Below, one piece after another: positions 24,172 through 40,037 of a DNA stretch of 57,175 bases. Origin of the DNA: an uncultured Erysipelotrichaceae bacterium (GTDB taxonomy: Bacteria > Bacillota_I > Bacilli_A > RF39 > UBA660); NCBI GenBank assembly GCA_902797265.1, contig CADBSF010000023.1:1-57175 (forward strand), read 5' to 3'. The position numbers were made by a program, and so were the translations under genes. Under the pieces are notes generated by a model. The model made no database searches, was not told where the DNA came from, and was given only the letters and a program-made list of their open reading frames with translations. Positions within the stretch are counted from its first letter, which is position 1. Each line of letters starts with the position of its first letter.

Positions 24172-24200
24172 ATTATAACTTATCTTTTAAAAACTGTCAT
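24172..24200 (-). promoter_or_regulatory. SigA-type promoter upstream of the coupling-protein gene
   Basis: Minus strand: ATGACA-17 nt-TATAAT in the 57-nt gap. The -35 element lies 3 nt downstream of the stop codon of the previous gene. Confidence 0.45.
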
Positions 24201-24203
24201 TAT

Positions 24204-24986
24204 TTATTCATTAGAAACTAAAATTTTAAACTCATTATCATGGAACTGATATAATCTACGGATTGGAGTCATAACACTATATTTTCCACAATTAAAGATA
24301 AATTCATATTTAGAATCGTTTCCCAAATCAATAAATGCTGTAAAATATGGTTTACATCCATTATAATAATCTTTATCATCGATTTCTTCATAGATAGGAT
24401 ATATCTTTTTATTTTTAACCATAAAAACAAAAGTAAATGTCTTCTCTGAATCATGATCGGTATCAAAAGCATTGGTAACAGCATAAATATCTTCCAAAGT
24501 ATCATCATCATCCATATCAAGAGATATCACATAAGAAGAAGTAAAAGCACTATTTGTAGGAATATTATTTTCTTTTAATACTTCATTAACATATGTCATA
24601 TCAGATATTGTATTCATTGTAAAAGGAAAAATATCTAAGGTATAGTTTGCTTGATAAGCAAAGAAATTTCCTTCTACCATAATAGCATTTTTATCTTTGT
24701 CAAAAGCATACCATCTATCATCCCTCCATAGATAATAGGATCCTACTTTTTCATTATTAGAATAAATATGAAATTTTTTCCAATCATATTCTTTTAATTG
24801 TTCACTATCAGTAAGATTACTCCATTTTTTATTACGATAAACCCAAGTAGTATCATGATCAACTAATAATGTTATTTTTTTTCCTTCTTCTATCATATTT
24901 GGAATTCCTAATGTAAGTAATAATATTATAAAAAGAATTAATATACAAACAATTATTCCAATATATACTTTTTTATTATCATTCAT
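24204..24986 (-). CDS. hypothetical bitopic membrane protein (positional candidate for a VirB8/TcpC-like channel component)
   Basis: AAGGTGGG RBS lies 6 nt before the ATG at 24986 (MNDNKKVYIG...), one nt after the upstream stop. It has one TM helix and a ~220-aa ectodomain with no recognisable motif. Confidence 0.4.
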   Translation of the reverse strand: MNDNKKVYIGIIVCILILFIILLLTLGIPNMIEEGKKITLLVDHDTTWVYRNKKWSNLTDSEQLKEYDWKKFHIYSNNEKVGSYYLWRDDRWYAFDKDKNAIMVEGNFFAYQANYTLDIFPFTMNTISDMTYVNEVLKENNIPTNSAFTSSYVISLDMDDDDTLEDIYAVTNAFDTDHDSEKTFTFVFMVKNKKIYPIYEEIDDKDYYNGCKPYFTAFIDLGNDSKYEFIFNCGKYSVMTPIRRLYQFHDNEFKILVSNE

Positions 24987-24987
24987 A

Positions 24988-27438
24988 TTATCCCACCTTA
25001 AAATATACAATTTGTGTAACTTCTTCCCAGTTATATTGAGCAAACATATTTGTTGATTTACTTCCTGGATCCATCATGTTAACGGTAGTTCCAGAAACAG
25101 AATCCAAAGCAACCCAGTGTTGTCCAGTATATTCTTTTACTTTCACAATAGCATAATATCCTGGTGTTTCTGTCAATTGCTTTAATCGATTAAATTTTTC
25201 TTGTTTGGTTTGACCATTTAAAATATCTTTATCAACATAATGGAAAGTAGGCGCTATTTTAGAAACATTATAATAACTACTAAAAGCTCCTCCAGAATCA
25301 AATCCTCCTCGAGGATTTAGATATTCAACAAATGTTCCAGGATTAAAATTCGATACATTTGTTGGTACTCCACTCTTCGCAATTAATATTGCTATTGAGG
25401 TTGCTAAACAACCAATCTCACGAATCGTTCTACCACTATTTCCTAATACTACATTAACCCAAGGACCTTCATATTGTTTCCAATTCGCATACGCTCCTGT
25501 TGAAACTCCCCCACTAGAACTTGTTGTATCACATTTTTCTGAGGTTGTACAATTACTCTTATAAATATTACTAACTCCTGATGAATTATCTCCTTGATTA
25601 TATGCTTGTAATAAAATCGATTTATAATTTAAACCTTTATTAGCTAACGTCTGAAAAGTATTAGAAACTGACTTATAATTAGTAAATACCACATAACCTT
25701 GTTCATTGGTTAATACTTCTCCTTTTACTTCTTCAATGGCGCTTCTTAAGATTGAATCACTAGGAAGAGGGTCTTTACTCATAGATGTCAATTGATTTTT
25801 TCCACTACGTAGGACATTAGAATTATCTGTATAACATCCTTTCGAAGGATTACAGAATAAAGGATCTGAACTACAAGTAGATACCTCTAATATCCACTTA
25901 CCAGAAGTATCCTTATATAATTTATTATTTGTACTGGTAATAACATTTGGTTTTGCTAAAACATAACTTCTTAATGCAACAAATTGTGCTTTTAAAGCTT
26001 CTTTCGAATTAGTATCATCAAATTCCATATATCCAATTCCTAATAAATAATCTTCAAAAGGAATTAATTCTTCTCCTGATAAAACATTAGCACTAGAACA
26101 TTGATTTAATTGGACATACAAATTAGATATTTCTACTTTTTTTTCAATATTCCCTTTTCCTTTAGAAGTAAATCCTTTTATATTATAAGTACAAACTGTA
26201 CTTTTTGAACAATTATCTTCATCATTTACTTCTTTTCCTATTAAATCATAATAATTATTTACAGACTGAAATACTTCATCAGCAATTGCTTCTCTTCTTA
26301 AAACAGAGGTTTGTGGTAAATATTTTGGAATAATAGAAGCAATTAAATTCTTTCGAAATACATTTTTATCATACTCATATTCATTAAACATACCAGATAC
26401 AATTTCTTGTATAGCAGCAGAATCCATATCATCATAAGTAATCGTTGCTTTATTATTAACTAAAGCATTATAGGTACCAACAACAAGTTCTGGATCAAAT
26501 GGTTTTCCATTATTTGCATAATTCGTACTAATCTCATTTACACGATTTAAAAAGTTTTCTTGGTCTGTTGAAGTAAAATTATAATCAATTCCTCCTGTAA
26601 AATCAATGTTTCCAAAAAAAGAACCTATCCCTAGAAAATCATCAAAACTAGATAAAAATGATCCAACAAAACAAATTAAATAGAGAATAATTAATACCAT
26701 TAGAATAAAAGGGCTCAAAAACAATAGAATATTACGTAGTTTTTTTCCAATAACAGCACTTGTATCAACAGAAGAATCCTCATTATTCTCTTCGTTACTT
26801 TCTTCTCCTCGATTAAAGATACTCTTTCTTTTTTTTCGATTTAATATATTATCAGCTAAAGATTTTTCTGATTTTTTTTCCTCATCTGAAGAAGGAGAAC
26901 CATCCTGTTCTCCTTTATTATCATCTTTTTTATTTAAAATAGCTTGATCTTTTCGAAGTTTTTGTTGTTCATATTGATGCTTATTTCGCATCTCTTGCAT
27001 TCTTTGATCGTCGCTATCATTTCCTCCAACATTTTGATTTGGTCTTTGATAATTTGCTTTTCTTCTACTAAAACGTTTACCAAGCCCACTTTCACTTATT
27101 CTATTGGAAGCTTTTTGAACTTTATTTCCCCCTGGAACTACTTGATTTGCTTTGGTCATTGTTTTTCCAATGGCCTCAGTTGCCTTTCCACCAGTTACTT
27201 TATCAGCAGCTTTAACTCCTGTTCCAATGGCAGCAGCATAAGGATTGGCTGTTTTTGAGGCGACATCAGCAGCAGCACGAACATTATTTGTATTGTTACG
27301 ATTATTTCTCTCATTTTCTGCTTTCTTTCTGTCGGCAAAACTTTCGCTATGAGAATTACCATAATTAGTAGGATTATTACTACTATTAGTATTAGTATTG
27401 GTATTACCACCACTATTACCACTTGCACTTCCTGCCAC
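24988..27438 (-). CDS. T4SS-associated cell-wall hydrolase: cytoplasmic N/T/G-rich region, TM helix, SpoIID-like domain and C-terminal papain-fold (C39-like/CHAP-like) cysteine peptidase
   Basis: GTG start with a GGAGGTGA RBS. TM helix ILLFLSPFILMVLIILYLICFV, SpoIID-type block EALKAQFVALRSYVLA, and C-terminal Cys/His pair in IGCLATSIAILIAKSG ... TGQHWVALDS. Confidence 0.65.
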   Translation of the reverse strand: MAGSASGNSGGNTNTNTNSSNNPTNYGNSHSESFADRKKAENERNNRNNTNNVRAAADVASKTANPYAAAIGTGVKAADKVTGGKATEAIGKTMTKANQVVPGGNKVQKASNRISESGLGKRFSRRKANYQRPNQNVGGNDSDDQRMQEMRNKHQYEQQKLRKDQAILNKKDDNKGEQDGSPSSDEEKKSEKSLADNILNRKKRKSIFNRGEESNEENNEDSSVDTSAVIGKKLRNILLFLSPFILMVLIILYLICFVGSFLSSFDDFLGIGSFFGNIDFTGGIDYNFTSTDQENFLNRVNEISTNYANNGKPFDPELVVGTYNALVNNKATITYDDMDSAAIQEIVSGMFNEYEYDKNVFRKNLIASIIPKYLPQTSVLRREAIADEVFQSVNNYYDLIGKEVNDEDNCSKSTVCTYNIKGFTSKGKGNIEKKVEISNLYVQLNQCSSANVLSGEELIPFEDYLLGIGYMEFDDTNSKEALKAQFVALRSYVLAKPNVITSTNNKLYKDTSGKWILEVSTCSSDPLFCNPSKGCYTDNSNVLRSGKNQLTSMSKDPLPSDSILRSAIEEVKGEVLTNEQGYVVFTNYKSVSNTFQTLANKGLNYKSILLQAYNQGDNSSGVSNIYKSNCTTSEKCDTTSSSGGVSTGAYANWKQYEGPWVNVVLGNSGRTIREIGCLATSIAILIAKSGVPTNVSNFNPGTFVEYLNPRGGFDSGGAFSSYYNVSKIAPTFHYVDKDILNGQTKQEKFNRLKQLTETPGYYAIVKVKEYTGQHWVALDSVSGTTVNMMDPGSKSTNMFAQYNWEEVTQIVYFKVG

Positions 27439-27459
27439 TAATATTCACCTCCTATCTAA

Positions 27460-29250
27460 TTAGAATCCTCCTCCCATACCAAAGGAATCTAATTCTTCTT
27501 GTGTCACAGCAACATTGATTCTCATTCTTCTATCTCCACATACGAATAATGCTTCTCCTTGAGAATAATGTTTGATACTCTCTTTCTCACTCTCATTTAA
27601 ATCTATCAGTAAAGCTAAATCTTCAACAGCTTGTTTCTTAAGACCCATAACTAAATAATATGAAGAGTTATCAAAGATTGCTTTTCCTTCCGTTATAACT
27701 GCAGGGTCTGAAAAATCACTTGGCTGTTGTGTAATAATGATTGTACCTGTATTATACTTTCTTGCACGTCTTTGAACTTGAGCTAAGAAAGCAGCTCCTA
27801 ATGCATTATTATCTCCTAATAACACATGTGCTTCATCAACCATTAAAATTGTATTTACATTAAAGTCTAGGCATAGACCCCATGCATACTTTAATACATT
27901 AAAGAATAAAGCATTTTTAATAGTAGAATCACTATTCATTAATTCTTTTATATTAAATACCATAAAGTCACTACCTTTTTTAATCGTAGTATGACCATCA
28001 AAATAAAATCTTAATTCATTAACAATAGGACGTATTTTTAACTCTAATTTTTCAACAATCTCTCTTTCTTGAGTCATTTCTGTCATAGATAATAAACGAC
28101 CTTTTATTGTTGCATAAACATCTGAAAACGTTGGAAATTGATTTGATGTAAACTTAGAAAAATCTGTATTAAAATCAATTTCAAAACGTCTATAGGTATC
28201 TTGTACAATTTCAGAAAACATAGCAAGTACACTCTCTTCAATAGAAGGATCATAATACTTCATAAATGCTTTTAAAAATTGTAGAGTTCTAGTTAAAACC
28301 GTATATCCTAGTCCTTGTTTAATTTCTTCTTCATCTGCATCAATTACAATTTCTAGTGGATTAATCATTCCGAATTCTCCACCCTTAGCAATATCTACGG
28401 TATCGCCACCAAAAGCTTGTGTAATTTCTCTAAACTCATCCTCTGGATCAATAATAACAATCTGACAACCATTACGAATATGAGTTCTAAGCAACAATTT
28501 AGCAGCTGTTGACTTACCAGAACCAGAAGTACCTAAAATAATCATATTTGCATTATTTCTATTATTTTCTTTACGAATTTTATATAAAAATTGATTAAAT
28601 AAGATAACTCCTCCAGAAAAATCAACTCCTAATAAAGTAGATAATCCTGGATCTTTGATACTATCAAAGATAAATGGATACATTGCTGATATCGTAACAG
28701 ATGGAATAATGGTACCTATTCTTTGTTCAATATCTTGACTAGGGAAAATCGGTAAAATAGATTTTAAGGCTTTCTCTTGTTCAAAACGTAATGATACAGC
28801 ACGTAATTCCATTGCATCTAAATAGTTTTTAACATTTAATTTTTTTAATTCTAATTCTTCTTTTGTATCAGCAGTAATCATAATATGCAATTGAAAATCA
28901 AAATTTCTAGCTTGCGTTCCAGCAATCATAGAAGTAAAATATTCCAAACTCTCAGCATCTTGTCTAATTCTTTCTCTAACAGTTTGATCTTTTTCATTCT
29001 GATATTGTTCCTTCAATTCAGCTACTTGTTTATTTAACATCTTAACCATTTCTTGATAAGGAACAGGAATATGTTTCGCTACTACTTTTATTCCACTCAT
29101 ATTAGTAAGACTAGATAAATACCCAGGAGAAATATATTTTGGATAAGATACTACTGTTAGTATCGTAGCATATTTATCACTAATAAAGAAATCACTAGGT
29201 GAAAAGTGTAATCCTTTAGGAGCAAGTTGACTTCTTAATCCTGTACTCAT
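27460..29250 (-). CDS. VirB4-family T4SS ATPase, C-terminal part (ATPase domain)
   Basis: Walker A IILGTSGSGKSTAAK and Walker B ILMVDEAHVLL. 596 aa; full-length Gram-positive VirB4 proteins are ~800 aa. Its ATG overlaps the stop of the preceding ORF (ATGA). Confidence 0.85.
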   Translation of the reverse strand: MSTGLRSQLAPKGLHFSPSDFFISDKYATILTVVSYPKYISPGYLSSLTNMSGIKVVAKHIPVPYQEMVKMLNKQVAELKEQYQNEKDQTVRERIRQDAESLEYFTSMIAGTQARNFDFQLHIMITADTKEELELKKLNVKNYLDAMELRAVSLRFEQEKALKSILPIFPSQDIEQRIGTIIPSVTISAMYPFIFDSIKDPGLSTLLGVDFSGGVILFNQFLYKIRKENNRNNANMIILGTSGSGKSTAAKLLLRTHIRNGCQIVIIDPEDEFREITQAFGGDTVDIAKGGEFGMINPLEIVIDADEEEIKQGLGYTVLTRTLQFLKAFMKYYDPSIEESVLAMFSEIVQDTYRRFEIDFNTDFSKFTSNQFPTFSDVYATIKGRLLSMTEMTQEREIVEKLELKIRPIVNELRFYFDGHTTIKKGSDFMVFNIKELMNSDSTIKNALFFNVLKYAWGLCLDFNVNTILMVDEAHVLLGDNNALGAAFLAQVQRRARKYNTGTIIITQQPSDFSDPAVITEGKAIFDNSSYYLVMGLKKQAVEDLALLIDLNESEKESIKHYSQGEALFVCGDRRMRINVAVTQEELDSFGMGGGF

Positions 29251-29840
29251 ACTGGCATCACCGTCCCAAACTCTGTTGAAGTTCCTCCATTAAGGAAGTT
29301 CTCCATTAATAATCTTAAATCATCATTACTAACTAAAGATGCATTTAATCCACAAGAAGCTAATCCAGTAATCATTTGACGTACTCTTTTTTGTAATAAA
29401 TCAGTATCTTTTGATTTAAATAAGAAAAAGTATTCTGTATCAACTACATTATTTCTAATAAAAGCTTCTCCTTTATTAATGTCTTGTAATATCAACTTAC
29501 GAATAGCAGGAGATGATGTTTCATTAAGAAGTAATTGCATTTGAGACATATAAACAGAAATATCTACTGGTCTATCCGCAACGATTAACCAAAATTCATA
29601 ATCGATTGTATTATAAAAATTTCTTAAAGCTATTAAAACATTATTTTGATAATCAGGATCAAGAATAAAAATATTTCTAGGAGTAATTTTAACTCCTGTT
29701 ACTTTATTATTATCTCGAGTAACAATCATATTATTTTGAATAGATCGAATTGGTAACCAATCCTCTGTATATCCACTACTTTTTTTCGCCACTTCTACAA
29801 CACCATCCTTTCCATCTATAAGTTTGTCTATTAGTAACAA
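29247..29840 (-). CDS. VirB4-family ATPase, N-terminal part encoded as a separate ORF
   Basis: The block ...DWLPIRSIQNNMIVTRDNNKVTGVKITPRNIFILD resembles VirB4/PrgJ/TcpF N-termini. It ends in an ATGA overlap with the ATPase ORF. The track start is a TTG without an RBS; a GTG at 29792 is an alternative start. Confidence 0.6.
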   Translation of the reverse strand: MLLIDKLIDGKDGVVEVAKKSSGYTEDWLPIRSIQNNMIVTRDNNKVTGVKITPRNIFILDPDYQNNVLIALRNFYNTIDYEFWLIVADRPVDISVYMSQMQLLLNETSSPAIRKLILQDINKGEAFIRNNVVDTEYFFLFKSKDTDLLQKRVRQMITGLASCGLNASLVSNDDLRLLMENFLNGGTSTEFGTVMPV

Positions 29841-30087
29841 ATTGATAGATTTCTATTATTATAGTTAACATATTATGATAATAACCAGTAGGTACAACCA
29901 ACAATCCTGTTATTAGAGCTGGGGCAAGAACCAGGATTGTTACTAAAGTACTATCTAAAGGAACAATAGCAAGCAACAACACGGTAGTCAAAATTCCTAT
30001 GGCAAAGATAGTCAAATCCATTGGTCTAAATAATCCCAGTATTAGTCTACCTCTCTTCGTATTTGCAGGTATCAAATATTCATTCAC
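29776..30087 (-). CDS. PrgI/TcpE-like (VirB3-analog) small membrane protein
   Basis: 103 aa. N-terminal IPANTKRGRLILGLFRPMDL followed by two TM helices and a C-terminal YRWKGW, the pattern of PrgI-family proteins found upstream of VirB4. Confidence 0.65.
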   Translation of the reverse strand: MNEYLIPANTKRGRLILGLFRPMDLTIFAIGILTTVLLLAIVPLDSTLVTILVLAPALITGLLVVPTGYYHNMLTIIIEIYQFVTNRQTYRWKGWCCRSGEKK

Positions 30088-30107
30088 TAGTAATCAACCT
30101 CCTATTT

Positions 30108-32246
30108 TTATTTTTTGTTTTGCTTATTAGCAATACGCATTCTTTGTCTCATATCAGTTTCACGAGCTTGTTGAGCAGAATTTGCAACACCCATAGCTTT
30201 TCCAATACTAGAATATTCATCTGCAATTTGAGCACCGCTAATTTGATCGCCACTCGCTCCTTTAACTTTAATACCAGCATCATTAAGAGCTTTTACAACC
30301 CTAGCGTGATCTGGTGCAAGTTTTCCTGTGGTAACAACTTCGTTATAAGAAGGAGCTTTAATATCATTACCTGCTGCATCTCTGCCAACAACTCTCTGAC
30401 TTCCAGCTTGCCATACTTCCACTTGTTTATCAGCCATTTGATCCATAATAACTTGTCCAAATAGTGAAGCATCATACTTATGACCATTAATAGTATATTT
30501 TCCATCTTGATCGGCTCCTGCTTCTTTAGCTGCTCTTACTTGATCAAAAGTAATATTCCTTAATTGGGTTCCATCAGATAATGTAAAATCAAATTGTCCA
30601 CCATTTTTAATAGCTTCTGCTTTTACTGATTCTTTCCAATTTTTCAAAGTTGAAAATGCAGTTTTATTAGCATCTAAAGTTAGAGATTCTTTGTCTGCTA
30701 AACTACGACCTGTAAGCATTTGATAAGCAGAGTCTTTTAGTCTACCAAATTGAGTAGAATGGGCAGCACGTACAGCATTTCTTTGTTCTTGAGCTTGTCT
30801 TACGGCCTTAGCATCTCCACCTTTCTCCCATGCTGTTTTAGCTCCTACAAATCCACCACCTATAGCTCCAGATGCAACAGAACCTACACCAGTAATACCA
30901 CGAACTAATGCTCTTCCTATATTGCGAACATGTTCTCCTTCTTTAAAAGGCATATTTTCTTTATGTTCTTGACGCATAGCTCTCCAATTAGTAGCTGCAC
31001 TACCAGCAATACCACCAACAGCAGCACCAGCAGCTGTTATCTTGCCAAGTCCACCAAATAATTTGAAATCTCCTTCTTTTGCTCCAACAGCTTGACGTAA
31101 AAATTTAGGTGCTTCTTTCGCAAAATAGAATAATGCAATCCAAATAATAATTAATGATACAACACCAAGAATACCACTAGAAATATTGATTGATATTCCA
31201 TTAACAATCGTATCTTGAATAATAAATATTACGAAGAATACTATCGCTAATCGAATGAACAAATCTAAATAAGTAGAAGTTAATGTCTTAACCCATGCAT
31301 TAAAACTACTATCTTTTGATCCTTTCGGATCTAGATAACTAATCAATGGGATAGGAGCAATTAATCGTAACATAGCTAGTTTAATAGCCCTCATCGCAAC
31401 ATCAATTGTAAAACTAATCATAATAACAGCAAATACTACTCCAACAATTGCTGAAATCAATGGAACGTGAGCAAATACAAATGCTTTATTTCCTTTAATA
31501 CCTTTATAACTTGTTGTACATTCTTCATCTAACATAGAAATAATCGTTAAAGGATCTGTATCTAATTTAAAATAAGTATCTAAAATATTATTATCAATAC
31601 TCTTACAAATTCGATTACTATTATAGTATTGATCCGGATAACGACCCGAACCAGAACGTTCTTCTTCTGGAATTAAATTGATTCGATAAAAACCTTTTAA
31701 TACACTAGAAGAAAATACATTAGCGGCTGACTTTAATGATGATGATGAGGTATTCGATAAATAATTCTCTGAATTATCACTTGTACCTAAAATCAGTTTC
31801 CCGAGGGTATTATTATCAAGTATTCGATCCTGCAAAGAATACAAAGTACCAAATAAAATACCATTAGAACGAACTCGTTTTTCAAATTTACTATTACCAG
31901 AAACACCACTCAAAGGTACTAAAGTAGAAAACAATACAACGACTAATACGATACGACCAATAAACTTTGAACCAGTCCCTCCTGATTTTGCGAAGTCATC
32001 TGGATTTATAATTCCTTTAATAATAATCAAGGCAAGCTGAAACAGCATATAAACCCCAATAATTAATTGTACACGATTAAAAAAATTGTAAACTGTTTTA
32101 CTGGAAATAATATTAGAAGAAGCTACATTAAAAAATAATTGATAAGAAATTCCTAACAACCAATAAGCAGCTTTATCTAACAAACTAAAGAATGCACGAG
32201 AAGCCTTAGAAAGTATCCCCGGTTTACTTAAATCTGTTTCACCCAT
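30108..32246 (-). CDS. VirB6/TrbL-like polytopic channel protein with ~320-aa soluble C-terminal extension
   Basis: At least 6 TM helices, including the segment MRAIKLAMLRLIAPIPLISYL typical of Gram-positive VirB6 analogs. It then has an Ala/Gly-rich linker and a soluble domain (30108..~31079). Confidence 0.65.
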   Translation of the reverse strand: MGETDLSKPGILSKASRAFFSLLDKAAYWLLGISYQLFFNVASSNIISSKTVYNFFNRVQLIIGVYMLFQLALIIIKGIINPDDFAKSGGTGSKFIGRIVLVVVLFSTLVPLSGVSGNSKFEKRVRSNGILFGTLYSLQDRILDNNTLGKLILGTSDNSENYLSNTSSSSLKSAANVFSSSVLKGFYRINLIPEEERSGSGRYPDQYYNSNRICKSIDNNILDTYFKLDTDPLTIISMLDEECTTSYKGIKGNKAFVFAHVPLISAIVGVVFAVIMISFTIDVAMRAIKLAMLRLIAPIPLISYLDPKGSKDSSFNAWVKTLTSTYLDLFIRLAIVFFVIFIIQDTIVNGISINISSGILGVVSLIIIWIALFYFAKEAPKFLRQAVGAKEGDFKLFGGLGKITAAGAAVGGIAGSAATNWRAMRQEHKENMPFKEGEHVRNIGRALVRGITGVGSVASGAIGGGFVGAKTAWEKGGDAKAVRQAQEQRNAVRAAHSTQFGRLKDSAYQMLTGRSLADKESLTLDANKTAFSTLKNWKESVKAEAIKNGGQFDFTLSDGTQLRNITFDQVRAAKEAGADQDGKYTINGHKYDASLFGQVIMDQMADKQVEVWQAGSQRVVGRDAAGNDIKAPSYNEVVTTGKLAPDHARVVKALNDAGIKVKGASGDQISGAQIADEYSSIGKAMGVANSAQQARETDMRQRMRIANKQNKK

Positions 32247-32261
32247 AAATAATCACCTGCC

Positions 32262-32714
32262 TTATTTAATACCACATGTTGAACTAGTAATCTTAAAGAA
32301 TTCTAATATCCATTGAACTAAGAATGGAAGTAAAAGCAAAGAGATTGCTAAAAGAAGACGAATTCCTAGTTTTCTTTGTGCATCTTTCATTGCTTTTTCA
32401 TCACCTGAAAAAGATACTTTTAAAAAGTCAATACTACTTAATAATAATACCAAAACAGGGCCAAGAACTTTAACGATATCTAGGGCTTTTTGAATTAACC
32501 AGGCAACTGAATCTGGATCATTTGTACTTCCAAAAATAGAATTACAATCTTGAGGATTATCATAATCACTATCATTAAAATTAAATGAATCACCTGTATT
32601 TTCTAATTTCACTGCAATCGTTCTAGAATTCGTATCTATAGTCTTTGCATTGATTACTACTGGAGTAAAAAATATAAAAGACAACAAAAAGATAAGTAAT
32701 ACTTTATATTTCAT
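32262..32714 (-). CDS. VirB2/TrbC-like T4SS pilin-like protein (signal peptide + two TM helices)
   Basis: Likely start is MKYKVLLIFLLSFIFFTPVVINA (Sec signal) at 32714; the track ORF extends to 32846 and would overlap the upstream gene. C-terminal hairpin LVLLLSSIDFLKVSFSGDEKAMKDAQRKLGIRLLLAISLLLL. Confidence 0.55.
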   Translation of the reverse strand: MKYKVLLIFLLSFIFFTPVVINAKTIDTNSRTIAVKLENTGDSFNFNDSDYDNPQDCNSIFGSTNDPDSVAWLIQKALDIVKVLGPVLVLLLSSIDFLKVSFSGDEKAMKDAQRKLGIRLLLAISLLLLPFLVQWILEFFKITSSTCGIK

Positions 32715-32781
32715 ATTAACACCCATTATCATTATATCATAAGAAAAGAAAAATAAATAAAAAAAAATAGTAAATATCTTA

Positions 32782-33123
32782 CTATTTTTCACCAGCTTTT
32801 CTCCAACACTCTTGCCAACTTGTAGTATTTGTTGCATCCTCTTCATTTGTTCCAGTTGCGATAATATTCATAAGAACAGAAACGATAGTTGCAACGAAGA
32901 ATACTAATACAGCATAAATACATCTTTTGATTAATCTACTTTGTGCAGCCTTTACTTCTTTTTCATCACTAGAAATAACTGCTTTTCCTAAATCAATAGT
33001 TCCTAATAAAATTAAGATAATTGGAATACCTATCCAAATAATTGGAAATACACCATTTCTAATAATTTTAACTAATGGAAGTAATCCTCCACAAACATCA
33101 GCTAATATAAAAACGTCTCCCAT
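32782..33123 (-). CDS. VirB2/TrbC-like T4SS pilin-like small membrane protein
   Basis: 113 aa with an AAGGAG RBS. Its TM-loop-TM hairpin ILILLGTIDLGKAVISSDEKEVKAAQSRLIKRCIYAVLVFFV is paralogous to the loop of 32262..32714. Confidence 0.55.
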   Translation of the reverse strand: MGDVFILADVCGGLLPLVKIIRNGVFPIIWIGIPIILILLGTIDLGKAVISSDEKEVKAAQSRLIKRCIYAVLVFFVATIVSVLMNIIATGTNEEDATNTTSWQECWRKAGEK

Positions 33124-33176: not shown

Positions 33177-34226
33177 CTAACGTCTAAATAGCCCAAATAT
33201 TTTAGAACCATTATTTGAATTATTTGAGTATATTACACCTAATTTTGATAAGAAATCATTAATAATAGAATTTCTCTTTCTCTCATCTAAAGAAGGCATA
33301 TTATAAAATACTCGAACACCTGATTCCTTTTCAAAATCAAGAACATCATTGTTTAATAAGCTACTCTTATTCAATACGACTTTCTTATGTCCTAATTTTG
33401 AAAAAACATCACTTTTTCTTCGAATCAACTTATTTAATTTTATAGAAGTTGGCTCAATCAAATAGATAACTTCATTGCAAAAAGAAGCATCTTTACAATC
33501 ATTTAAGTCAACTAATACAATATTTACTCCTTCGTGTTTTTTAACAGTAAATCTTAAATCTGCATCCTTAATAGATAATAAAGTTTTATCATTGAAATAA
33601 GAAAAATCATTTCTATTTAATTCAATTCCTAAAACATGTTCTCTACCATAAATAGATGCTAGCTCTTTTTTTAACATATATATTAATGTGGTTGCTCCTG
33701 CATGTTCCGTAATGTTACGGAAACCAATAATAGTCGCAACTTTTTCATTTTTTTCATTATTAATATTTCTATTAGGAACAGATGATATATTATTATTTTC
33801 TACACTATCATTAGAAGATATTACTTTCTCTTCTTTTAATTGATTAGCCATTTTCAATATATGTTCAACATCTTGTAATGTATTTGGTTTTTTTACTAGA
33901 TAGCGAATTCCATTCATATCAGTAGTAAAATTATAAATACCAATTGTAATCAATTGTCCTAAAAATTTTGGAGTACATAAATCAGAACCTTCTGGTAATA
34001 AAAAGATTATTTTTTCTGCATCTAGTCCACTACATAAACTTTCATATGTTTTTATATCAGTAGGATTCTTTAATGCAGAAACATCTAAAATCATTTTATT
34101 ATAAAAAAAGTTTCGAAACATCTCCACTATTTCCATAGCATCATATACACCAGTGATGCTTTTTATAATATCAATATCAAGATTTGCTAAATCATTTTGT
34201 TTTTTATTTGCAATAATAACATTCAT
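33177..34226 (-). CDS. TadZ/CpaE-like protein: receiver-like N-domain + MinD/ParA-fold domain with degenerate P-loop
   Basis: MinD/ParA-type layout (VATIIGFRNITEHAGATTL...; VNIVLVDLND; VIYLIEPT; KKVVLNKS). The deviant Walker A KGGxGK(T/S) is replaced by RNITEHAGATT. Confidence 0.5.
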   Translation of the reverse strand: MNVIIANKKQNDLANLDIDIIKSITGVYDAMEIVEMFRNFFYNKMILDVSALKNPTDIKTYESLCSGLDAEKIIFLLPEGSDLCTPKFLGQLITIGIYNFTTDMNGIRYLVKKPNTLQDVEHILKMANQLKEEKVISSNDSVENNNISSVPNRNINNEKNEKVATIIGFRNITEHAGATTLIYMLKKELASIYGREHVLGIELNRNDFSYFNDKTLLSIKDADLRFTVKKHEGVNIVLVDLNDCKDASFCNEVIYLIEPTSIKLNKLIRRKSDVFSKLGHKKVVLNKSSLLNNDVLDFEKESGVRVFYNMPSLDERKRNSIINDFLSKLGVIYSNNSNNGSKIFGLFRR

Positions 34227-34258: not shown

Positions 34259-34714
34259 TTACTTTGCTTCAAATACTGAAGTATCTCCTGAAATATTAAA
34301 TACTTGCATATCAATGGTATTACTAATAATAGGAATTTCAATATTTATTTTAGTAACAATATGATAATAAAATTTTTCTCCAGAATCATTATGAATACCT
34401 TCGGTTTTTCTTACTGTTTTTTTACAAGCACAATACAAAGTATCACTACCTAAATAAGAATGAGACATTCCCTCACATTTTGGACAATTAATTCTTCTAG
34501 AAGGTCTATATCCAATTGTTTGAGCATATTTTTTAATTTCAGCTTCACATTCACTATTACAAACACCATCATATTCTCTATAAACAGATATGATTTTATT
34601 TTTCATTCTAAATGCCTTTGTATAGTTAACATTAAATGCTAGATATCCCATGATTACTACAATAAAAACAACAATGATAACAACTACAACAGATCCACCA
34701 AGAGAATCTCTCAT
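34259..34714 (-). CDS. Cys-rich pseudopilin-like (TadE/TadF-analog) protein
   Basis: Short leader MRDSLG followed by hydrophobic GSVVVVIIVVFIVVIMGYLAF, with 6 Cys (VCNSEC, NCPKC, YCAC). Paralog of 34734..35201 (shared YTKAF(K/R)MKN and INIEIPII/INIPII blocks). Confidence 0.5.
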   Translation of the reverse strand: MRDSLGGSVVVVIIVVFIVVIMGYLAFNVNYTKAFRMKNKIISVYREYDGVCNSECEAEIKKYAQTIGYRPSRRINCPKCEGMSHSYLGSDTLYCACKKTVRKTEGIHNDSGEKFYYHIVTKINIEIPIISNTIDMQVFNISGDTSVFEAK

Positions 34715-34733: not shown

Positions 34734-35201
34734 TTATTTTATATATTTCGTATCACCTGTAACTTGAAAAAAAGGTAAACTTAAAATATTCTTTATTATT
34801 GGTATATTAATATCAACTTGTGTAATAATACGATATTTATCTCTCTTATATAGATTAGCAGTATCACATTCTTCTACACCACTATCAGTTTTTCTAAGTG
34901 GGCAAAAGCAAAATAATCCATCTGAGGCTAAAGAATAACCGTTTGGACAGCTTTTCATAACAGGAGAATAGCCGATGCTTTTAGCTTTTTCTAAAATGAT
35001 AGAAGAACAGGAAGAACTACTATTGCCTGATTTTGAAAAGCAATTTTCTCTTCCTTCAAAGTCTTCAATACTGGATAATACAAAATTTTTCATTTTAAAT
35101 GCCTTTGTATAGCTTACAGTAAAGCCTAACACTCCAGAAACAATTACTAAAAACAAAACAATAAAAACTAAATTTAGAATTCCACCAAAAGCATCCTGCA
35201 C
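34734..35201 (-). CDS. Cys-rich pseudopilin-like (TadE/TadF-analog) protein
   Basis: GTG start with a GAGGTGA RBS. Leader MQDAFG followed by GILNLVFIVLFLVIVSGVLGF, with 6 Cys. Confidence 0.5.
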   Translation of the reverse strand: MQDAFGGILNLVFIVLFLVIVSGVLGFTVSYTKAFKMKNFVLSSIEDFEGRENCFSKSGNSSSSCSSIILEKAKSIGYSPVMKSCPNGYSLASDGLFCFCPLRKTDSGVEECDTANLYKRDKYRIITQVDINIPIIKNILSLPFFQVTGDTKYIK

Positions 35202-35214: not shown

Positions 35215-35370
35215 TTATTTTCCACTATAACTAGAAATATTATCCCATTGAGTATTAATAGAATTTTTAATACTTGGCCACATAATCCAGAAAAATCCGA
35301 TTATTGCTCCAATAGCGATTAAAGTAATTACGGTTAAGTTTAATTCACCCGTAGCAGCTTTCATCAACAT
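35215..35370 (-). CDS. 51-aa Flp/type-IV-like pilin candidate (not in the ORF track)
   Basis: Minus strand GAAAGGATGGG-ATG TTG ATG AAA...: MLMKAATGELNLTVITLIAIGAIIGFFWIMWPSIKNSINTQWDNISSYSGK*. It has an AAGGA RBS and its own promoter, and sits between the tadC-like and pseudopilin-like genes, the usual position of a pilin gene. Confidence 0.6.
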   Translation of the reverse strand: MLMKAATGELNLTVITLIAIGAIIGFFWIMWPSIKNSINTQWDNISSYSGK

Positions 35371-35400
35371 CCCATCCTTTCTATCATAAATTACAAAACA

Positions 35401-35429
35401 ATTATATCAAAATAAAACTACAATAACAA
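35401..35429 (-). promoter_or_regulatory. SigA-type promoter with extended -10 upstream of the pilin-like ORF
   Basis: Minus strand: TTGTTA-17 nt-TATAAT preceded by TGA (TGnTATAAT), in the 81-nt gap after the tadC-like gene. Confidence 0.5.
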
Positions 35430-35451: not shown

Positions 35452-36255
35452 CTAAAACATCATCATCATAGATATTAATATGACTAACATGACACCAATA
35501 CCAGTAACAACAAGCATTACCATAGTTTGGCTTTCCATATGTCCTAGTCTCTCTTTATATTTTGTTTCCCTTGCTTTATTTTGTAAGGAAGAAACAGTTT
35601 TAGAAAACATCATCAATCTTTCCTGTTTTCTTTCTTGTGAACCAATTCCTAAACGATATAGTAAACGCATCATTCTCATAGAATCTCTAACAGGATATGT
35701 GTTAGCAAATTCCATGTAAGGATCAACTGATGCATCACCTGAATTGATTCGATCAATCATTCTTCTAAGTCCTGGTTTGAATATATCAGGAGCATCTCCA
35801 ATTGATTTACCAATTGCAACAGGAACTGTATAATGTTGAATTAATATTTCCAAACTCTTTAAATAGTATGGCAACATAACGTCAATTTCATGTAAATGTT
35901 GTTTATAATATCCTTTTAACTGTGTATAAGGAATCTTAAAGATAACAACAGCTACAACAATTGATAATACTAAATTCAAAAAGAATTGAGAATTAATAAT
36001 ATCAGCTGAACTATTTCCAGAAATAGTAAGTACTAATACAATTAAAAATCCCATAGCAGCATAAGTCACTCTTTTTGAATATAATTGATCAATATCAACA
36101 TCTTCCCCATATCTAGCATACACTAAAAATTGATAATCATCTTCTTTTAGTGCTTCTAAATATTTTTGATTATCTGCAAAAAACTTATCTTTATCGATTG
36201 TATTATTATAGATAAGGATAAACATGATAATTGCACCAACAATTAATATTTCCAT
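35452..36255 (-). CDS. TadC-like platform protein (T2SS-F family)
   Basis: 267 aa. Its topology of N-terminal TM helix, helical cytoplasmic domain and C-terminal TM helix, its size, and its position after the tadB-like gene are typical of TadB/TadC pairs. It overlaps the upstream gene by 1 nt. Confidence 0.55.
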   Translation of the reverse strand: MEILIVGAIIMFILIYNNTIDKDKFFADNQKYLEALKEDDYQFLVYARYGEDVDIDQLYSKRVTYAAMGFLIVLVLTISGNSSADIINSQFFLNLVLSIVVAVVIFKIPYTQLKGYYKQHLHEIDVMLPYYLKSLEILIQHYTVPVAIGKSIGDAPDIFKPGLRRMIDRINSGDASVDPYMEFANTYPVRDSMRMMRLLYRLGIGSQERKQERLMMFSKTVSSLQNKARETKYKERLGHMESQTMVMLVVTGIGVMLVILISMMMMF

Positions 36256-37157
36256 TATTCAGCCCCCACATTCTCATTATAGTATTTTTCACCCTTCAAT
36301 AAGAAGTATGTATTTACAACTAATACAGCATGCATCAAGAACTGTACATACCATCTTTGTAATAAAACCAAATAAGTTTCCCTTCCTAGTAAGTACTGTA
36401 CCAGCATAACTAACAAGTAAAGGATAACACCAAATTGTAAGAACGATTTATGGAAAGAAGCTCTTTCAATTCTATCACGATAAACACTTTCAACTAGCAT
36501 ATCGATATCTAGTTGCATGTTTTCCAAAGAATCGGCAGAGTTTTGAGCACCTTCCTTAGTTATTTGTAAAAATAATTGATGCATATTTTTAACAATATAG
36601 TAAGGATATAATCTACTCATATACTCTAAGGCTTCATCAATAGTACCATTATCATAACTCATATTAATCATCTGACGTACATCAGATAATACAGGATCTT
36701 CCAAGATTCCAGAATTTGCAACACCTTCTAGTGATTTTACAAAAGATTGTGTCGTAGCAAATTCCATAATAACATTGGAAGTATATACTTGTATTTGTTC
36801 AAATAAAAATTCTGAATAAACTCTCTTACATCTTAAATAAGAAAGGTAAGGTACAAAAGCAACAGCAATTAATGCATAAATAATACTAATAATTAAATTA
36901 TAGAAATATAGATACGTTACAACAGCTGCGAAAGTTGCAAAAATAGTAACTTGAATTGCATATTGTCTTGGAGTATATTCTTGCCCCATTTCTTTTGCTT
37001 TTTCTCTTACGATTTTAAAAGAATAAGGAGAAAATCTATCATACATTCCTTGTACTTGATTTACTACATATTTTCCTACATTATCACCTTTATAATGTCT
37101 ATATAGATAAATACCAAGTACAAATATCGTAATTATAAATAATTCTTCTAGATACAT
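36255..37157 (-). CDS. TadB-like platform protein (T2SS-F family)
   Basis: 300 aa with an N-terminal TM helix, a TM pair, a helical cytoplasmic domain (GTIDEALEYMSRLYPYYIVKNMHQLFLQITKEGAQ) and C-terminal TM helices. It lies immediately downstream of the ATPase gene. Confidence 0.55.
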   Translation of the reverse strand: MYLEELFIITIFVLGIYLYRHYKGDNVGKYVVNQVQGMYDRFSPYSFKIVREKAKEMGQEYTPRQYAIQVTIFATFAAVVTYLYFYNLIISIIYALIAVAFVPYLSYLRCKRVYSEFLFEQIQVYTSNVIMEFATTQSFVKSLEGVANSGILEDPVLSDVRQMINMSYDNGTIDEALEYMSRLYPYYIVKNMHQLFLQITKEGAQNSADSLENMQLDIDMLVESVYRDRIERASFHKSFLQFGVILYLLVMLVQYLLGRETYLVLLQRWYVQFLMHAVLVVNTYFLLKGEKYYNENVGAE

Positions 37158-37172: not shown

Positions 37173-38663
37173 CTACTCGCCTAACTTCATTGTAGCAGGA
37201 ATTCCAGTTGTATAATTTGCATTATTCATATCATTAGAAATATTTGGAGTTAAAGCTACTTGATTCGTAGGATATACAGGATTAGAAGGAAGATCTGGTA
37301 CAGGAGTAACAGGTTGATTATTTTCAACTGTACTACTAACTGCATTAACATCTGATACAGATGGAGTAAATCCATTTGTATTCTCTTCTCTTAGCATTTG
37401 ATTAACCATATTTGAAGTTGGATAAACACTCTCTTGAGAAGCAGTTTCTTCTGTTAAAACTTCACTTTGTACAGATTCAACTTGATTTGTATTATCTTCA
37501 CTAGTAACCACTTTATTAATAGTATTAGTCTCTTCTGTTGTTGTTATATTATCTTGACTAATCTCTTCGTAATTAGAATTATCTTTTCCACTACGAATTG
37601 GTAATTCATCAGGTAATCCACTAATAATATCAGAAACATTGATATTTTGATTTTCTATATATTCAATCAAATGATTACTTGGTTTACACATCATAGGTTT
37701 TCCAAACATTTTTTGATAAATAACACGAGAAATTGGAACATTATTATCATCAACATAAAATTCACATACTTCATCTAATTCACGATGGAATTTTCCATAT
37801 TCTTTTGAATAAAAAGCTTTAATATGAACTCCTAACTGGATATAACGATATATGGTAGTTAAGAATTGATGAACATCCAAATCTGTTTCCATTAAGGAAT
37901 ATAAACGATAAGGAATAGCAGATGCTTTATCCGCATGGATTGTTGATAAAATATTATGTCCAGAAGAAATCGAATTACGAACTGCAGAAACAGCTTCTGC
38001 AGAACGTACTTCTGATAGTAATATCCATTTAGGATTCTGTCTCATACAAGTTACTAATACGTCAGAATAACTAGCAACGTTATTTGTCTTCATTGAAACA
38101 ATATCTCTTTGTGGAAATATTTTATCCAAATGCAACTCTAGTGTATCTTCAATGGTTATGATTTTTTCATTAGTTTTGGTATGACTTGCTAAATACTTAA
38201 CAAACTCTGTTTTACCAGAACCAGTTTCTCCAGCAACCATTATGTTACAATGACCTTCAACGCATTTGATTAAAAAGTCATGAATGGTTGGTGTAAAATA
38301 ATCTTCTTGAATTAATTTATCTTTTTCAAGACGTATTTTAGCAGGAGTTTTACGAATAACTAGTGCAATTCCATTTGTTGCGATAGATTGATGAACAAAG
38401 TTCATACGTAACTCTGCAGATTCAGCATCCAAAAATGGTTTTGCATTATTAAATGTAGTACCCATAACATTAGAACACTGAAAAGCAAGTTTCTCAACGA
38501 ATTCAGGAGTAGCACCTTCTACTTCAACTCTTAAAGATCCTTGTGTAAGTGAACGAATCCAAATTTGTCCACCATTATCAAATGAAATATCTGTAATATC
38601 GTCGTTATCTAATAAAGAACGAAAAGGCCCAAAATCCAATTTATCAAAAATATTTTCGTTCAT
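37173..38663 (-). CDS. TadA/CpaF-type secretion ATPase (VirB11/T2SS-E superfamily) with low-complexity C-terminal tail
   Basis: Walker A MVAGETGSGKTEF, Walker B/Asp-box region WILLSEVRSAEA and His box STIHA. A ~140-aa S/T/N/V-rich tail (37173..~37601) lies beyond the ATPase core. Confidence 0.8.
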   Translation of the reverse strand: MNENIFDKLDFGPFRSLLDNDDITDISFDNGGQIWIRSLTQGSLRVEVEGATPEFVEKLAFQCSNVMGTTFNNAKPFLDAESAELRMNFVHQSIATNGIALVIRKTPAKIRLEKDKLIQEDYFTPTIHDFLIKCVEGHCNIMVAGETGSGKTEFVKYLASHTKTNEKIITIEDTLELHLDKIFPQRDIVSMKTNNVASYSDVLVTCMRQNPKWILLSEVRSAEAVSAVRNSISSGHNILSTIHADKASAIPYRLYSLMETDLDVHQFLTTIYRYIQLGVHIKAFYSKEYGKFHRELDEVCEFYVDDNNVPISRVIYQKMFGKPMMCKPSNHLIEYIENQNINVSDIISGLPDELPIRSGKDNSNYEEISQDNITTTEETNTINKVVTSEDNTNQVESVQSEVLTEETASQESVYPTSNMVNQMLREENTNGFTPSVSDVNAVSSTVENNQPVTPVPDLPSNPVYPTNQVALTPNISNDMNNANYTTGIPATMKLGE

Positions 38664-38701: not shown

Positions 38702-39508
38702 TTAACTTTCTGTCCAAACAGTATGTTGATTAATCCAATCTTTTAATTGTTCACTAGAAATCTCTTGATCAGCAGGTTCATCTTTTAAACTTTCATTAGT
38801 AGGAACTAATATTAAGTTTGTATCATAAGTTCTCATGAATTCTGCTTTTTTAAGAAGTACAAATGTTTCTTCAGGAACAGCAAACACTACCATAGCTGGA
38901 ACTCTTACTTCATCTAAGTTTTGGAATACAGGTTGTCCATTAGCATCTTTAACAGCTAATACTTCAATGTTAGAAATTAGTTTACCTAACATAATTTTGT
39001 CAGCATCAGCATCAAGTTTTTGATTATTATCAAGTTTATTAACTGCTTTTAAATAGATGTCAATATAGTTTCCTGGGTATACAGAGTTTCCATAAGTAGA
39101 AGCTGTACTAACGCTTAAGTTATATAGAACATATCCTTTTGGATAATCTAATATAATATTTGCTGGTAATTGTTCTTTTTCAACAACTGCTCTTTTATAG
39201 AATAAGCTTCCTTTTGGAATAACAGAATCAGCAGCAGAATATTTATCAACAATTTCCCCTATGTTTTGAATTACATCACCTTCAAGCATTGAAGGAGGTA
39301 CATTTCTTGTTGATATCATTGATTCTGTTATCTGAGTTCCTGGATTAATTTGTTCTGCAGCATAAGGTACAGAAACTGGATTAATTTGTGAGTTAATACG
39401 CATTGTGTAAGCAAAATATAATACTACAATTGCTGCGATAACCCCGACTACAGTAACTGTATTTTTATTTTGCATAAATTTTTTTAAACTAGTAGATAAA
39501 TTTCCCAT
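38702..39508 (-). CDS. CpaB/RcpC-like Flp pilus assembly protein (SAF domain)
   Basis: N-terminal TM helix, then a SAF-like block VSVPYAAEQINPGTQITESMISTRNVPPSMLEGDVI...ADSVIPKGSLF as in CpaB. 268 aa. Confidence 0.6.
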   Translation of the reverse strand: MGNLSTSLKKFMQNKNTVTVVGVIAAIVVLYFAYTMRINSQINPVSVPYAAEQINPGTQITESMISTRNVPPSMLEGDVIQNIGEIVDKYSAADSVIPKGSLFYKRAVVEKEQLPANIILDYPKGYVLYNLSVSTASTYGNSVYPGNYIDIYLKAVNKLDNNQKLDADADKIMLGKLISNIEVLAVKDANGQPVFQNLDEVRVPAMVVFAVPEETFVLLKKAEFMRTYDTNLILVPTNESLKDEPADQEISSEQLKDWINQHTVWTES

Positions 39509-39530: not shown

Positions 39531-40037
39531 TTAATTTTTATTTTGTAGCTCTATTAAAGACTTACATTGATCTAAAGTCATATTCTTTAAACCTTCCTCA
39601 ACTGGAAAATCACTATAAACATTAGATTCAACAATCATATCATAACTAGTTGAAATATTTCCTGAATCTTTAGATTCTTTTCCATCTTTATCCTTTACTT
39701 TTACAGAAAGAACAGTTTGAGAATCTACTTTAATACTTGCTTTTGGTGGAACTTCATTAATATCATAGAACTTAATATTATAATCTCTTGTTCCATCTAC
39801 ACTATTAGCAAATCGATAAACGAAGCTTTCAACAAATTTTTCTTTATCGATTCTAAGTAGACCACAGGTTCTTAAATATGTATTATCAATGGCATCAAGA
39901 GCAGCGGCATCCGCTGTCTCTTTTACCAAATAATAATCTAATTCTCCTCCAGTTGAATAATTAGTAAGTACATTAATCATTAGAAGAGCAATAACACTTA
40001 ACAAAATTATTCCTACTGCCAACATTCCTTTATTCAT
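39531..40037 (-). CDS. N-anchored ~170-aa protein with prepilin-like short leader (module copy B)
   Basis: Starts MNKG followed by MLAVGIILLSVIALLMINVL, then the conserved STGGELDYYLVKETADAAALDAID. By eye ~70-75% identical to 45773..46285. Confidence 0.55.
   Translation of the reverse strand: MNKGMLAVGIILLSVIALLMINVLTNYSTGGELDYYLVKETADAAALDAIDNTYLRTCGLLRIDKEKFVESFVYRFANSVDGTRDYNIKFYDINEVPPKASIKVDSQTVLSVKVKDKDGKESKDSGNISTSYDMIVESNVYSDFPVEEGLKNMTLDQCKSLIELQNKN

Follow-up and report, generated by a model that had tools for sequence, protein, structure and literature searches.

A conserved 49-residue membrane protein with pilin-like anatomy, encoded beside pseudopilin-like and type IV secretion genes in uncultured gut Bacilli

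The window analyzed here is a 57,175-nucleotide stretch of DNA from an uncultured Erysipelotrichaceae bacterium (contig CADBSF010000023.1), and its subject is a small open reading frame (ORF) on the minus strand that an earlier note, made from the letters alone, had proposed to encode a pilin-like protein of an atypical class. We found that this ORF is a genuine, widely conserved gene encoding a membrane protein of uncultured gut Bacilli. The product is a predicted bitopic membrane protein of 49 residues, and on balance we think it probable that the protein, as a major subunit of Flp size, builds a diverged type IV filament of the Tad/archaeal type, one that would work with a monoderm type IV secretion system (T4SS). 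The gene and its control elements are as follows.

35215..35364, minus strand: small gene, 49 amino acids plus stop, placed by conservation, a ratio of nonsynonymous to synonymous substitution rates (dN/dS) of 0.13, the starts of homologues and the spacing of the ribosome-binding site
35373..35381, minus strand: Shine-Dalgarno sequence GAAAGGATG, recognized from the sequence and conserved at two homologous loci (L001 and L005)
35401..35429, minus strand: sigma-70-type promoter, a 10/12 match with TG, conserved at homologous loci

Re-reading and translation of the minus strand at 35215-35370 reproduced the previously reported sequence exactly, with the longer version of the ORF translating to MLMKAATGELNLTVITLIAIGAIIGFFWIMWPSIKNSINTQWDNISSYSGK followed by a stop codon. 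The 250-nucleotide gap in which it lies was confirmed as well; it is bounded by the stop of the gene for a 267-residue protein (35452) and by the GTG with which the following gene starts (35201). The frame and the stop of the proposed 51-residue ORF were retained and its start was not: the third codon, an ATG at 35364, is favored because most homologues begin MKAATGEL, the residues upstream are not conserved, and the AAAGGAtG Shine-Dalgarno element lies ∼8 to 10 nucleotides from this ATG but only 2 to 4 from the first one. The resulting 49-residue product is MKAATGELNLTVITLIAIGAIIGFFWIMWPSIKNSINTQWDNISSYSGK. The description of the ORF as unannotated is correct for the supplied track but not for public gene callers, which do call it; the NCBI/ENA/Logan entry P0001 (49 residues) is 100% identical to it, and the public label is always "hypothetical protein." No competing ORF was found on the plus strand across the small-gene region, and an Rfam scan of that region matched no RNA family.

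The promoter with an extended −10 element and the AAGGA ribosome-binding site were both present as the earlier note had placed them. The promoter comprises a −35 element, TTGTTA (35429-35424), a 17-nucleotide spacer, and a TG-extended −10 element, TGaTATAAT (35409-35401), and outscored every other promoter-like site in the 1.4 kb scanned; the AAGGA lies at 35379-35375 and the longer AAAGGA at 35380-35375. Across 145 distinct homologous upstream regions, the pattern TTGnnn-16..18-TAnAAT was present in 131 (compared with 8% of shuffles), the extended −10 form was present in 79 and mostly ended 31 to 41 nucleotides before the start codon, and a Shine-Dalgarno sequence at −20 to −4 was present in 143.

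With the small ORF as query, a protein search gave 803 homologues (E ≤ 0.01), of which the best 120 were 73 to 100% identical to it and were mostly called as 49-residue proteins with the MKAATGEL start. With an E-value limit of 1e-3, a profile search of 1.84 billion cluster representatives gave 574 clusters (50% identity), and 137 of these also passed a limit of 1e-10. In a scan that used one genome per GTDB species, the gene was present in at least 188 species-representative genomes, and the 80 matching genomes that were retrieved were all metagenome-assembled genomes of uncultured gut bacteria (Bacilli, "Tenericutes," "Mycoplasma sp. CAG:877," and Candidatus Faecimonas type). Conservation of the reading frame at homologous loci, which had been named as a check on the proposal, was borne out: the frame was intact at all loci examined, synteny was strict, and the dN/dS for 79 distinct coding sequences was 0.134 in the ORF frame compared with 1.4 and 2.4 in the other two frames. 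The codon-position entropy was likewise 0.91 at the third position versus 0.37 and 0.25 at positions 1 and 2, respectively. A blastn search of the locus against plasmid and phage collections gave no match, and the single match to the family in a scan of viral contigs spanned 23 residues and was discarded as spurious. The contigs of four divergent members (P0203, P0156, P0211, and P0217) are only 0.5 to 1.9 kb long.

The family consensus is MK[EA]A[TS]GE[LM]N[LM]T[VL][IV]T[IV][IV]AIAA..FF...WP.I, with a tail of variable sequence and length after it. Among 150 diverse representatives, at least 90% retain each of the residues M1, K2, A4, G6, E7, L8, T11, T14, and A17, and the proteins of the family range from 46 to 96 residues. 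The pilin-like architecture recognized in the earlier note holds family-wide: a six-residue leader ending in Gly (MKAATG in the window, followed by ELNLTVITLIAIGAIIGFFWIMW), a hydrophobic helix of 22 residues, and a short tail that varies. The hydrophobic stretch spans 22 to 24 residues, within a single predicted transmembrane segment (residues 3-33). A short, positively charged leader that ends in Gly and precedes about 20 hydrophobic residues is the pattern of a class III signal peptide, and a small size (∼50-80 residues) with one hydrophobic helix and a short tail is that of the Flp/Fap proteins; both patterns were found. Constraint differed by part: dN/dS was lowest in residues 1 to 7, which span the leader and the Glu (0.03), slightly higher in the helix (0.055), and highest in the tail (0.33).

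Many divergent members carry a C-x(8-16)-C loop at the C-terminal end, a feature that speaks for a tail outside the cytoplasm and is reminiscent of the disulfide region in type IV pilins. Tandem copies of the small gene were present at some loci (L089-L091, at 10001-10552; L109; L168; and L173); one pair, for example, comprises proteins of 94 and 82 residues that both start MKEATGELNMTVV and differ in their Cys-rich tails, and the duplicates precede two pseudopilin-like genes. Just upstream of the island in L089-L091 (525-1682, locus minus strand) are divergently oriented genes for a thioredoxin/PedC-like oxidoreductase and an Rce1-like (CAAX-type) membrane protease. Their placement in the clade with Cys-rich tails could reflect a link to disulfide formation or processing, or it could be coincidental.

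In the direction of transcription, the window contains two modules of surface-protein genes and then genes for a CpaB/RcpC-like protein, a T2SSE ATPase, membrane proteins of 300 and 267 residues, and the small protein; these are followed by genes for proteins of 155, 151, and 349 residues and then by T4SS_pilin-like, TrbL/VirB6-like, TraC-like, VirB4-like, SpoIID hydrolase, and VirD4 genes. The features are listed below in that direction.

39531..40037, minus strand: DUF5411 protein whose N terminus is hydrophobic and has a short leader, MNKG (PF17424, 4e-41)
38702..39508, minus strand: CpaB/RcpC-like protein with SAF and RcpC domains (PF16976 just above the cut-off; TIGR03177 at 6e-12, below the cut-off)
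37173..38663, minus strand: FlaI/CpaF-clade ATPase of a type IV filament, extended at the C terminus by a low-complexity region (Pfam T2SSE, 1e-27)
36255..37157, minus strand: 300-residue membrane protein with four transmembrane segments, in the TadB position (assigned by position; identity unverified)
35452..36255, minus strand: 267-residue membrane protein with four transmembrane segments, in the TadC position (assigned by position; identity unverified)
34734..35201, minus strand: 155-residue pseudopilin-like protein, MQDAFGG plus a hydrophobic helix, 13 nucleotides downstream of the small gene
34259..34714, minus strand: 151-residue paralogue of the pseudopilin-like protein, starting MRDSLGG
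33177..34226, minus strand: 349-residue protein with a conserved AGATT motif, candidate TadZ/CpaE/ParA-like protein (placed by position after the pseudopilin genes; identity unverified)
21789..33123, minus strand: monoderm-type T4SS gene block, downstream of the small gene and cotranscribed or co-oriented with it, with the six members that follow
32782-33123, minus strand: T4SS_pilin-like (PF18895, E 0.0014, subthreshold)
30108-32246, minus strand: TrbL/VirB6-like
29247-29840, minus strand: TraC-like
27460-29250, minus strand: VirB4-like
24988-27438, minus strand: SpoIID-domain hydrolase
21789-24146, minus strand: VirD4 coupling protein

The same gene order was observed at every species-genome locus. 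The small gene was followed by a pseudopilin-like (E-like) gene at 120 of 121 distinct loci and by a ∼340-residue gene at 119 of 121, and T4SS genes lay within 10 kb downstream at 70 of 80 loci; the block of ATPase, 300-residue, and 267-residue genes lay within 6 kb upstream at 87 of 95. The linkage of the small gene to the downstream pseudopilin/TadZ-like/T4SS genes (99%) is tighter than its linkage to the ATPase block (92%). At seven loci (L109, L113, L131, L140, L146, L149, and L168) the small gene comes first in the block and is preceded by genes that are unrelated or have housekeeping functions, and at L144 the ATPase block is displaced 7 to 9 kb upstream. In L109, L113, L116, L131, L140, L146, L149, and L168, where the small gene lies at ∼8 to 10 kb, no ATPase/membrane-protein block is present within 10 kb upstream, and the genes upstream of the divergent metagenomic loci without the block vary (rpoB/rpoC in L149, a tRNA synthetase, and fmt). 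Given its conserved promoter and these loci, the small gene is the first gene of a pseudopilin/T4SS operon and not simply a member of the ATPase operon. The assignment to the pilin slot of a Tad block consequently stands for the position but not for simple membership in that block. The island (20536-53386) is flanked by housekeeping genes, namely those for a rhodanese (20196-20468) and GreA (53537-54085), with others for a class I Trp/Tyr-family tRNA synthetase, Hsp90, and phosphoketolase. Pfam detected no relaxase or integrase among the window ORFs scanned, and no tRNA gene is present in the window; the locus therefore looks like a chromosomal, possibly nonmobilizing T4SS of the sort reported for Patescibacteria.

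The ∼150-residue proteins encoded downstream start M-[RK]-[DE]-A-[FY]-G-G and continue into a hydrophobic stretch ending in YTKAF, so that their six-residue leader is in the same register as the M-K-[AE]-A-[TS]-G of the small protein; hhalign aligned the two leaders (E = 0.025, 13 columns), and G6 and G7 were invariant in a 120-member alignment of the ∼150-residue family. The AlphaFold2 model of the 155-residue protein, with a predicted local distance difference test score (pLDDT) of 85 and a predicted template modeling score (pTM) of 0.77, consists of an N-terminal helix at 2 to 47 (46 residues) and a small alpha/beta domain. PF13400 (TadE/G-like) was the top recurrent Pfam match of this family, in 35 of 120 members, all subthreshold (best E 0.027), and a profile search of the family against PDB sequences gave nothing meaningful. 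The 349-residue protein is possibly TadZ/CpaE/ParA-like, judging from its position and motif: a weak CbiA/ParA match was obtained in 1 of 31 family members (E = 0.002), a profile search against PDB sequences gave no match, and the AGATT motif resembles the Walker-A variant of TadZ/CpaE.

On the upstream side, the closest PDB sequences to the ATPase were FlaI (1e-19) and CpaF (3e-18), well ahead of VirB11 (1e-12). Residues ∼340 to 496 of the ATPase form a long low-complexity extension rich in S, T, N, Q, E, and V, and the ORF in this position ranges from ∼420 to 740 residues among species. The tadC-like and tadB-like labels previously given to the two membrane-protein genes could not be verified. 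The profiles of the 300- and 267-residue families show weak mutual similarity (hhalign E = 0.005 over 166 columns), and neither matched PDB sequences.

Several results weigh against the small protein being a pilin. No T2SSF signal was found in 38 and 30 members of the two membrane-protein families, and the structure model of the 267-residue protein was unusable (pLDDT 49, from a shallow multiple sequence alignment with ≥88% identity). The absence of the Flp processing motif G/xxxxEY, noted from the first, extends across the family, in which G6-E7-L-N-L-T11-V12 places Glu at +1, Thr at +5, and Val or Leu at +6; the canonical Glu or Asp at +5 is absent, the sole conserved acidic residue being the Glu at +1, and residue −2 is T or S instead of K or R. 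Pfam and NCBIfam gave no match at E ≤ 0.1 for the window protein, Flp_Fap (PF04964) included, and no solved pilin resembled the family in a profile search against PDB sequences. A Foldseek search of the 155-residue model against the PDB gave no significant match and no pilin. Neither a Peptidase_A24 gene nor a GxGDxK motif was found in the 57-kb window or within 10 kb in ∼160 loci. Finally, the ATPase block is not directly upstream in 7 or 8 of 95 evaluable loci, at which the small gene and its partners still accompany T4SS genes. The only polytopic unannotated ORF of the window, at 51809-53386, was ruled out as an A24 peptidase.

In favor of a pilin, the weak Pfam matches that recur most in the small family are to pilin N-terminal models. 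Against 24,736 Pfam models, 79 families matched the 150 diverse members at E ≤ 0.1; the top recurrent match was PF07790 (13 of 150 members, best E 0.0038, subthreshold), weak matches to PF16982 (Flp1_like) occurred in 4 of 150, and PF04964 was not among the 25 most frequent families. No match was obtained in the small family to the VirB2/TrbC-type pilin models PF18895 and PF04956, and the protein has a single transmembrane segment rather than a two-segment hairpin. PF04021 matched 1 of 150 members at 3e-5; the member is unnamed in the output, and we suspect that it is P0156, which lies on an unreliable contig. P0156 (L092, gene at 123-317) has a Flp-like N terminus, MRLKLNNKGQTLVEYVLIISL, containing KGQTLVEY, joined to the C-terminal two-thirds of the family sequence, and we rejected it as evidence. 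Its contig is 729 bp long with 0.59x coverage and unrelated flanks, and its family likeness is limited to the 3′ two-thirds of the small gene; because of the coverage and flanks, P0156 may be an assembly chimera.

Since at some loci the small gene is kept with T4SS genes without an adjacent ATPase block, its product could belong to the T4SS, and the most serious alternative is a small nonpolymerizing single-pass protein that serves the monoderm T4SS, or a pseudopilin complex, as a subunit or assembly factor; its conserved helix would anchor it, and it would undergo no prepilin-type processing. We regard this as a tenable but rather unlikely explanation. It is consistent with the gene heading an operon that contains T4SS genes, with the closer linkage to the E-like and ∼340-residue genes (120/121 and 119/121) than to the ATPase block (87/95), with the housekeeping genes directly upstream at L149, L168, and L113, and with the lack of a peptidase in the loci searched; moreover, the leader is the most constrained part (dN/dS of 0.03), which fits a retained N terminus as well as it fits a cleavage signal. 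By contrast, the leader register common to the small protein and the TadE/G-like proteins, the variable and sometimes Cys-looped tail together with tandem duplication, which are typical of exposed filament subunits, and the strong promoter of its own, which suits a highly expressed structural subunit, all favor a filament, and no known monoderm T4SS family matches the protein. Far less probable is a precursor of a secreted peptide (a bacteriocin, pheromone, or exclusion factor) with the N terminus as its export signal; the small size, the Cys pairs in some tails, and the thioredoxin/PedC-like gene near some loci would suit such a precursor, but the N-terminal 29 residues are almost invariant and the supposed mature part is variable, the reverse of the pattern that a signal peptide joined to an active peptide would show, the hydrophobic stretch has transmembrane length (22-24 residues) and is followed by no AxA or GG-type cleavage site, and strict synteny with pilus/T4SS genes is seen instead of transporter or immunity genes. 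A chance ORF in an intergenic spacer, as the short length, the AT-rich genome, and the missing annotation might suggest, is refuted by the in-frame dN/dS of 0.13 against values above 1 in the other frames, the codon-position entropy contrast, the frame kept intact at all loci, and the hundreds of protein clusters.

The pilin reading is plausible, and the comparison with known systems indicates of what kind such a pilin would be. Flp/Tad (type IVc) pilins such as Aggregatibacter Flp1, Caulobacter PilA, and M. tuberculosis Rv3656c are ∼50 to 70 residues long and, like the small protein, have a single N-terminal hydrophobic helix and a short tail with no globular domain. In the M. tuberculosis cluster the pilin gene directly follows those for an ATPase and two membrane proteins and directly precedes TadE/F-like genes, as the small gene does, and the context of a CpaF/FlaI-clade ATPase with CpaB is likewise Flp/Tad-like. 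The leaders of Flp prepilins are roughly 20 to 30 residues long, compared with 6 in the small protein. Unlike Flp pilins, the small protein has no G/xxxxEY motif, no Tyr, and no PF04964 match, and unlike Flp/Tad loci, its locus has no TadV/A24 gene nearby, has undetectable TadB/C homology, and is fused to a T4SS operon. The order of the M. tuberculosis cluster, tadA-tadB-tadC-flp-tadE-tadF, is matched by that of the small-gene locus (PMC9531140), and a Glu or Asp at +5 is given as a rule for type IV pilins in two papers (PMC3244431, PMC9531140).

Archaeal type IV pilins with class III signal peptides (PF07790, PF04021) share with the small protein a short leader ending in Gly and a helix of the type [IV]-T-[IVL]-[IV]-A-I. 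The likeness extends to the ATPase, for which archaeal FlaI was the best PDB match, and to PF07790 as the most frequent weak match of the small family. Differences from the archaeal pilins are the T/S instead of K/R at −2, the bacterial host, and matches that all fall below the Pfam thresholds, and no FlaK/PibD-type peptidase was found with the small-gene loci. Tad systems reportedly derive from archaeal Epd-type pili (Denise et al., 2019). Because both the hidden Markov model test and the motif test failed, the small protein cannot be filed as a member of the Flp family; it fits best as a variant among pilins of the Tad/archaeal type. Of the proposal of an atypical pilin class, the real gene and the pilin-like anatomy have held up; no match of the small family reached a curated threshold. 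The missing peptidase and the unrecognizable platform proteins are the main gaps in the pilin reading and would also, if the protein is a pilin, be the source of its interest.

Type IV pili that assist conjugative T4SSs are described for the IncI R64 thin pilus, PAPI-1, and TP114 (PMC12857230; PMC9045228). The small-gene locus resembles these systems in having type IV filament genes beside T4SS genes, which makes a role in donor-recipient contact plausible. The IncI R64, PAPI-1, and TP114 pili are type IVb pili of Gram-negative plasmids and islands with large pilins (PilS/PilV) and PilD-type peptidases, whereas the system examined here has a monoderm host, a Tad-like machine, and a 49-residue subunit. 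In recent work on T4SSs, such assistance is described only for Gram-negative IncI/PAPI-1 elements (PMC12102498, PMC12857230).

Gram-positive tad-like loci without a recognizable prepilin were reported by Imam et al. in 2011, and the loci that they list include tadV, which the small-gene locus lacks (PMC3244431). Miller et al. (2022) described an uncharacterized CpaF/PilC-like/DUF5411 operon of gut Clostridia with unannotated proteins of 48 to 77 residues (PMC9523054). Both surveys resemble the present case in having a Tad-type ATPase in CpaB/RcpC and DUF5411 contexts where no pilin was found. The Clostridial DUF5411 operon was nevertheless set aside as a different system, having a single 434-residue PilC-like platform and no T4SS genes listed for it (PMC9523054).

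Patescibacteria have a chromosomal T4SS with arrays of VirB2-like pilins, usually without a relaxase (PMC12102498, PMC12857230). The likeness to the window lies in the monoderm-type chromosomal T4SS, the reduced-genome organism, the small pilin-like genes in tandem nearby, the T4SS_pilin-like gene, and the absence of a relaxase detectable by Pfam. Unlike the VirB2 arrays, the small protein has one transmembrane segment and no PF18895/PF04956 signal, and unlike VirB2 biogenesis it is paired with TadE/G-like proteins and a FlaI/CpaF ATPase. We found no description in the literature of the small protein or of a monoderm T4SS combined with a Tad-like machine.

A mechanism can be proposed for the small protein as a filament subunit. 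Its sigma-70 promoter would drive it as the first gene of an operon that continues with one or two TadE/G-like minor pilins, the TadZ-like candidate, and the T4SS; for this step the promoter, the gene order, and their conservation were observed directly. The protein would insert with its N terminus in and its variable tail out, a topology suggested by the Cys-pair tails and the relaxed constraint on the tail. The invariant M-K-[AE]-A-[TS]-G leader, common to the minor pilins, would be recognized by one processing/assembly factor, presumably a prepilin peptidase (none was found in the loci searched) that would cut after Gly6 and leave Glu at +1. From the genomic context, the FlaI/CpaF-clade ATPase, the two membrane proteins, and CpaB would polymerize the helices, with the minor pilins priming a thin fiber. 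By analogy with the IncI/PAPI-1 type IV pili, and more speculatively, the fiber might provide cell-cell contact or adhesion for the adjacent T4SS. A bolder form of this proposal, which we advance only tentatively, is that the small proteins represent an unrecognized class of filament subunit, with a six-residue M-K-x-A-x-G leader and Glu at +1, that is handled by a strongly diverged Tad/archaeal-type machine and forms the contact or mating fiber of a monoderm T4SS; the platform proteins and possibly the processing enzyme would then escape current models.

The small gene is in any case a very abundant and strongly conserved candidate subunit with a defined motif, MK[AE]A[TS]GE[LM]N[LM]T, and heads a pseudopilin and T4SS operon in at least 188 gut species. 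Should it prove to be a pilin, the motif would provide a searchable signature for a new pilin class, the Glu+5 rule would be relaxed, a processing route not yet known would be indicated, and there would be a suggestion of how gut Bacilli that are uncultured and have reduced genomes come into cell contact when they transfer DNA or protein. If the bolder proposal were true, the protein would be the missing pilin of the Gram-positive tad-like loci without an identifiable prepilin and would represent the first case of a type IV pilus built into a conjugation-type apparatus of Gram-positive bacteria. The general description of Gram-positive T4SSs is that they have no pili and depend on adhesins, with the Patescibacterial VirB2-like arrays as the exception (PMC12102498, PMC12857230). 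If the protein is instead a membrane subunit of the T4SS, it would still count among the core components of a widespread system, as one that has gone unannotated.

Directly upstream of the CpaB-ATPase block, the region 39531-51834 (minus strand) comprises two tandem, diverged four-gene modules, each encoding an Ig-like surface protein (595/610 residues), a sortase-domain protein (280/273 residues), a Cys-rich protein (915/965 residues), and a DUF5411 protein (168/170 residues). The Cys-rich proteins gave no family match, and the C-terminal end of the 915-residue protein has no obvious LPXTG motif. The second DUF5411 protein is encoded at 45773-46285 (minus strand), and DUF5411 homologues occur across L001-L174. 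Their N termini follow MNK[GAS][MI]L.VGII (e.g., MNKGMLTVGII), a very short leader and then a hydrophobic stretch; since a small residue precedes the transmembrane helix as in prepilins, the DUF5411 domain may be a pilin-like component. Outside the island, a rhomboid-family intramembrane protease is encoded at 16624-17220 (plus strand), where the window has only one other gene of appreciable size on that strand. The VirB2-type PF18895 signal at 32782-33123 sits in a monoderm T4SS, a class usually said to be without VirB2 homologues. When other loci were labeled by blastp, further ORFs matched the 113-residue protein or the adjacent 194-residue protein (32262-32846), sometimes twice per locus; because the ORFs at 32782-33123 and 32262-32846 overlap by 65 nucleotides, one of their starts is probably mis-set.

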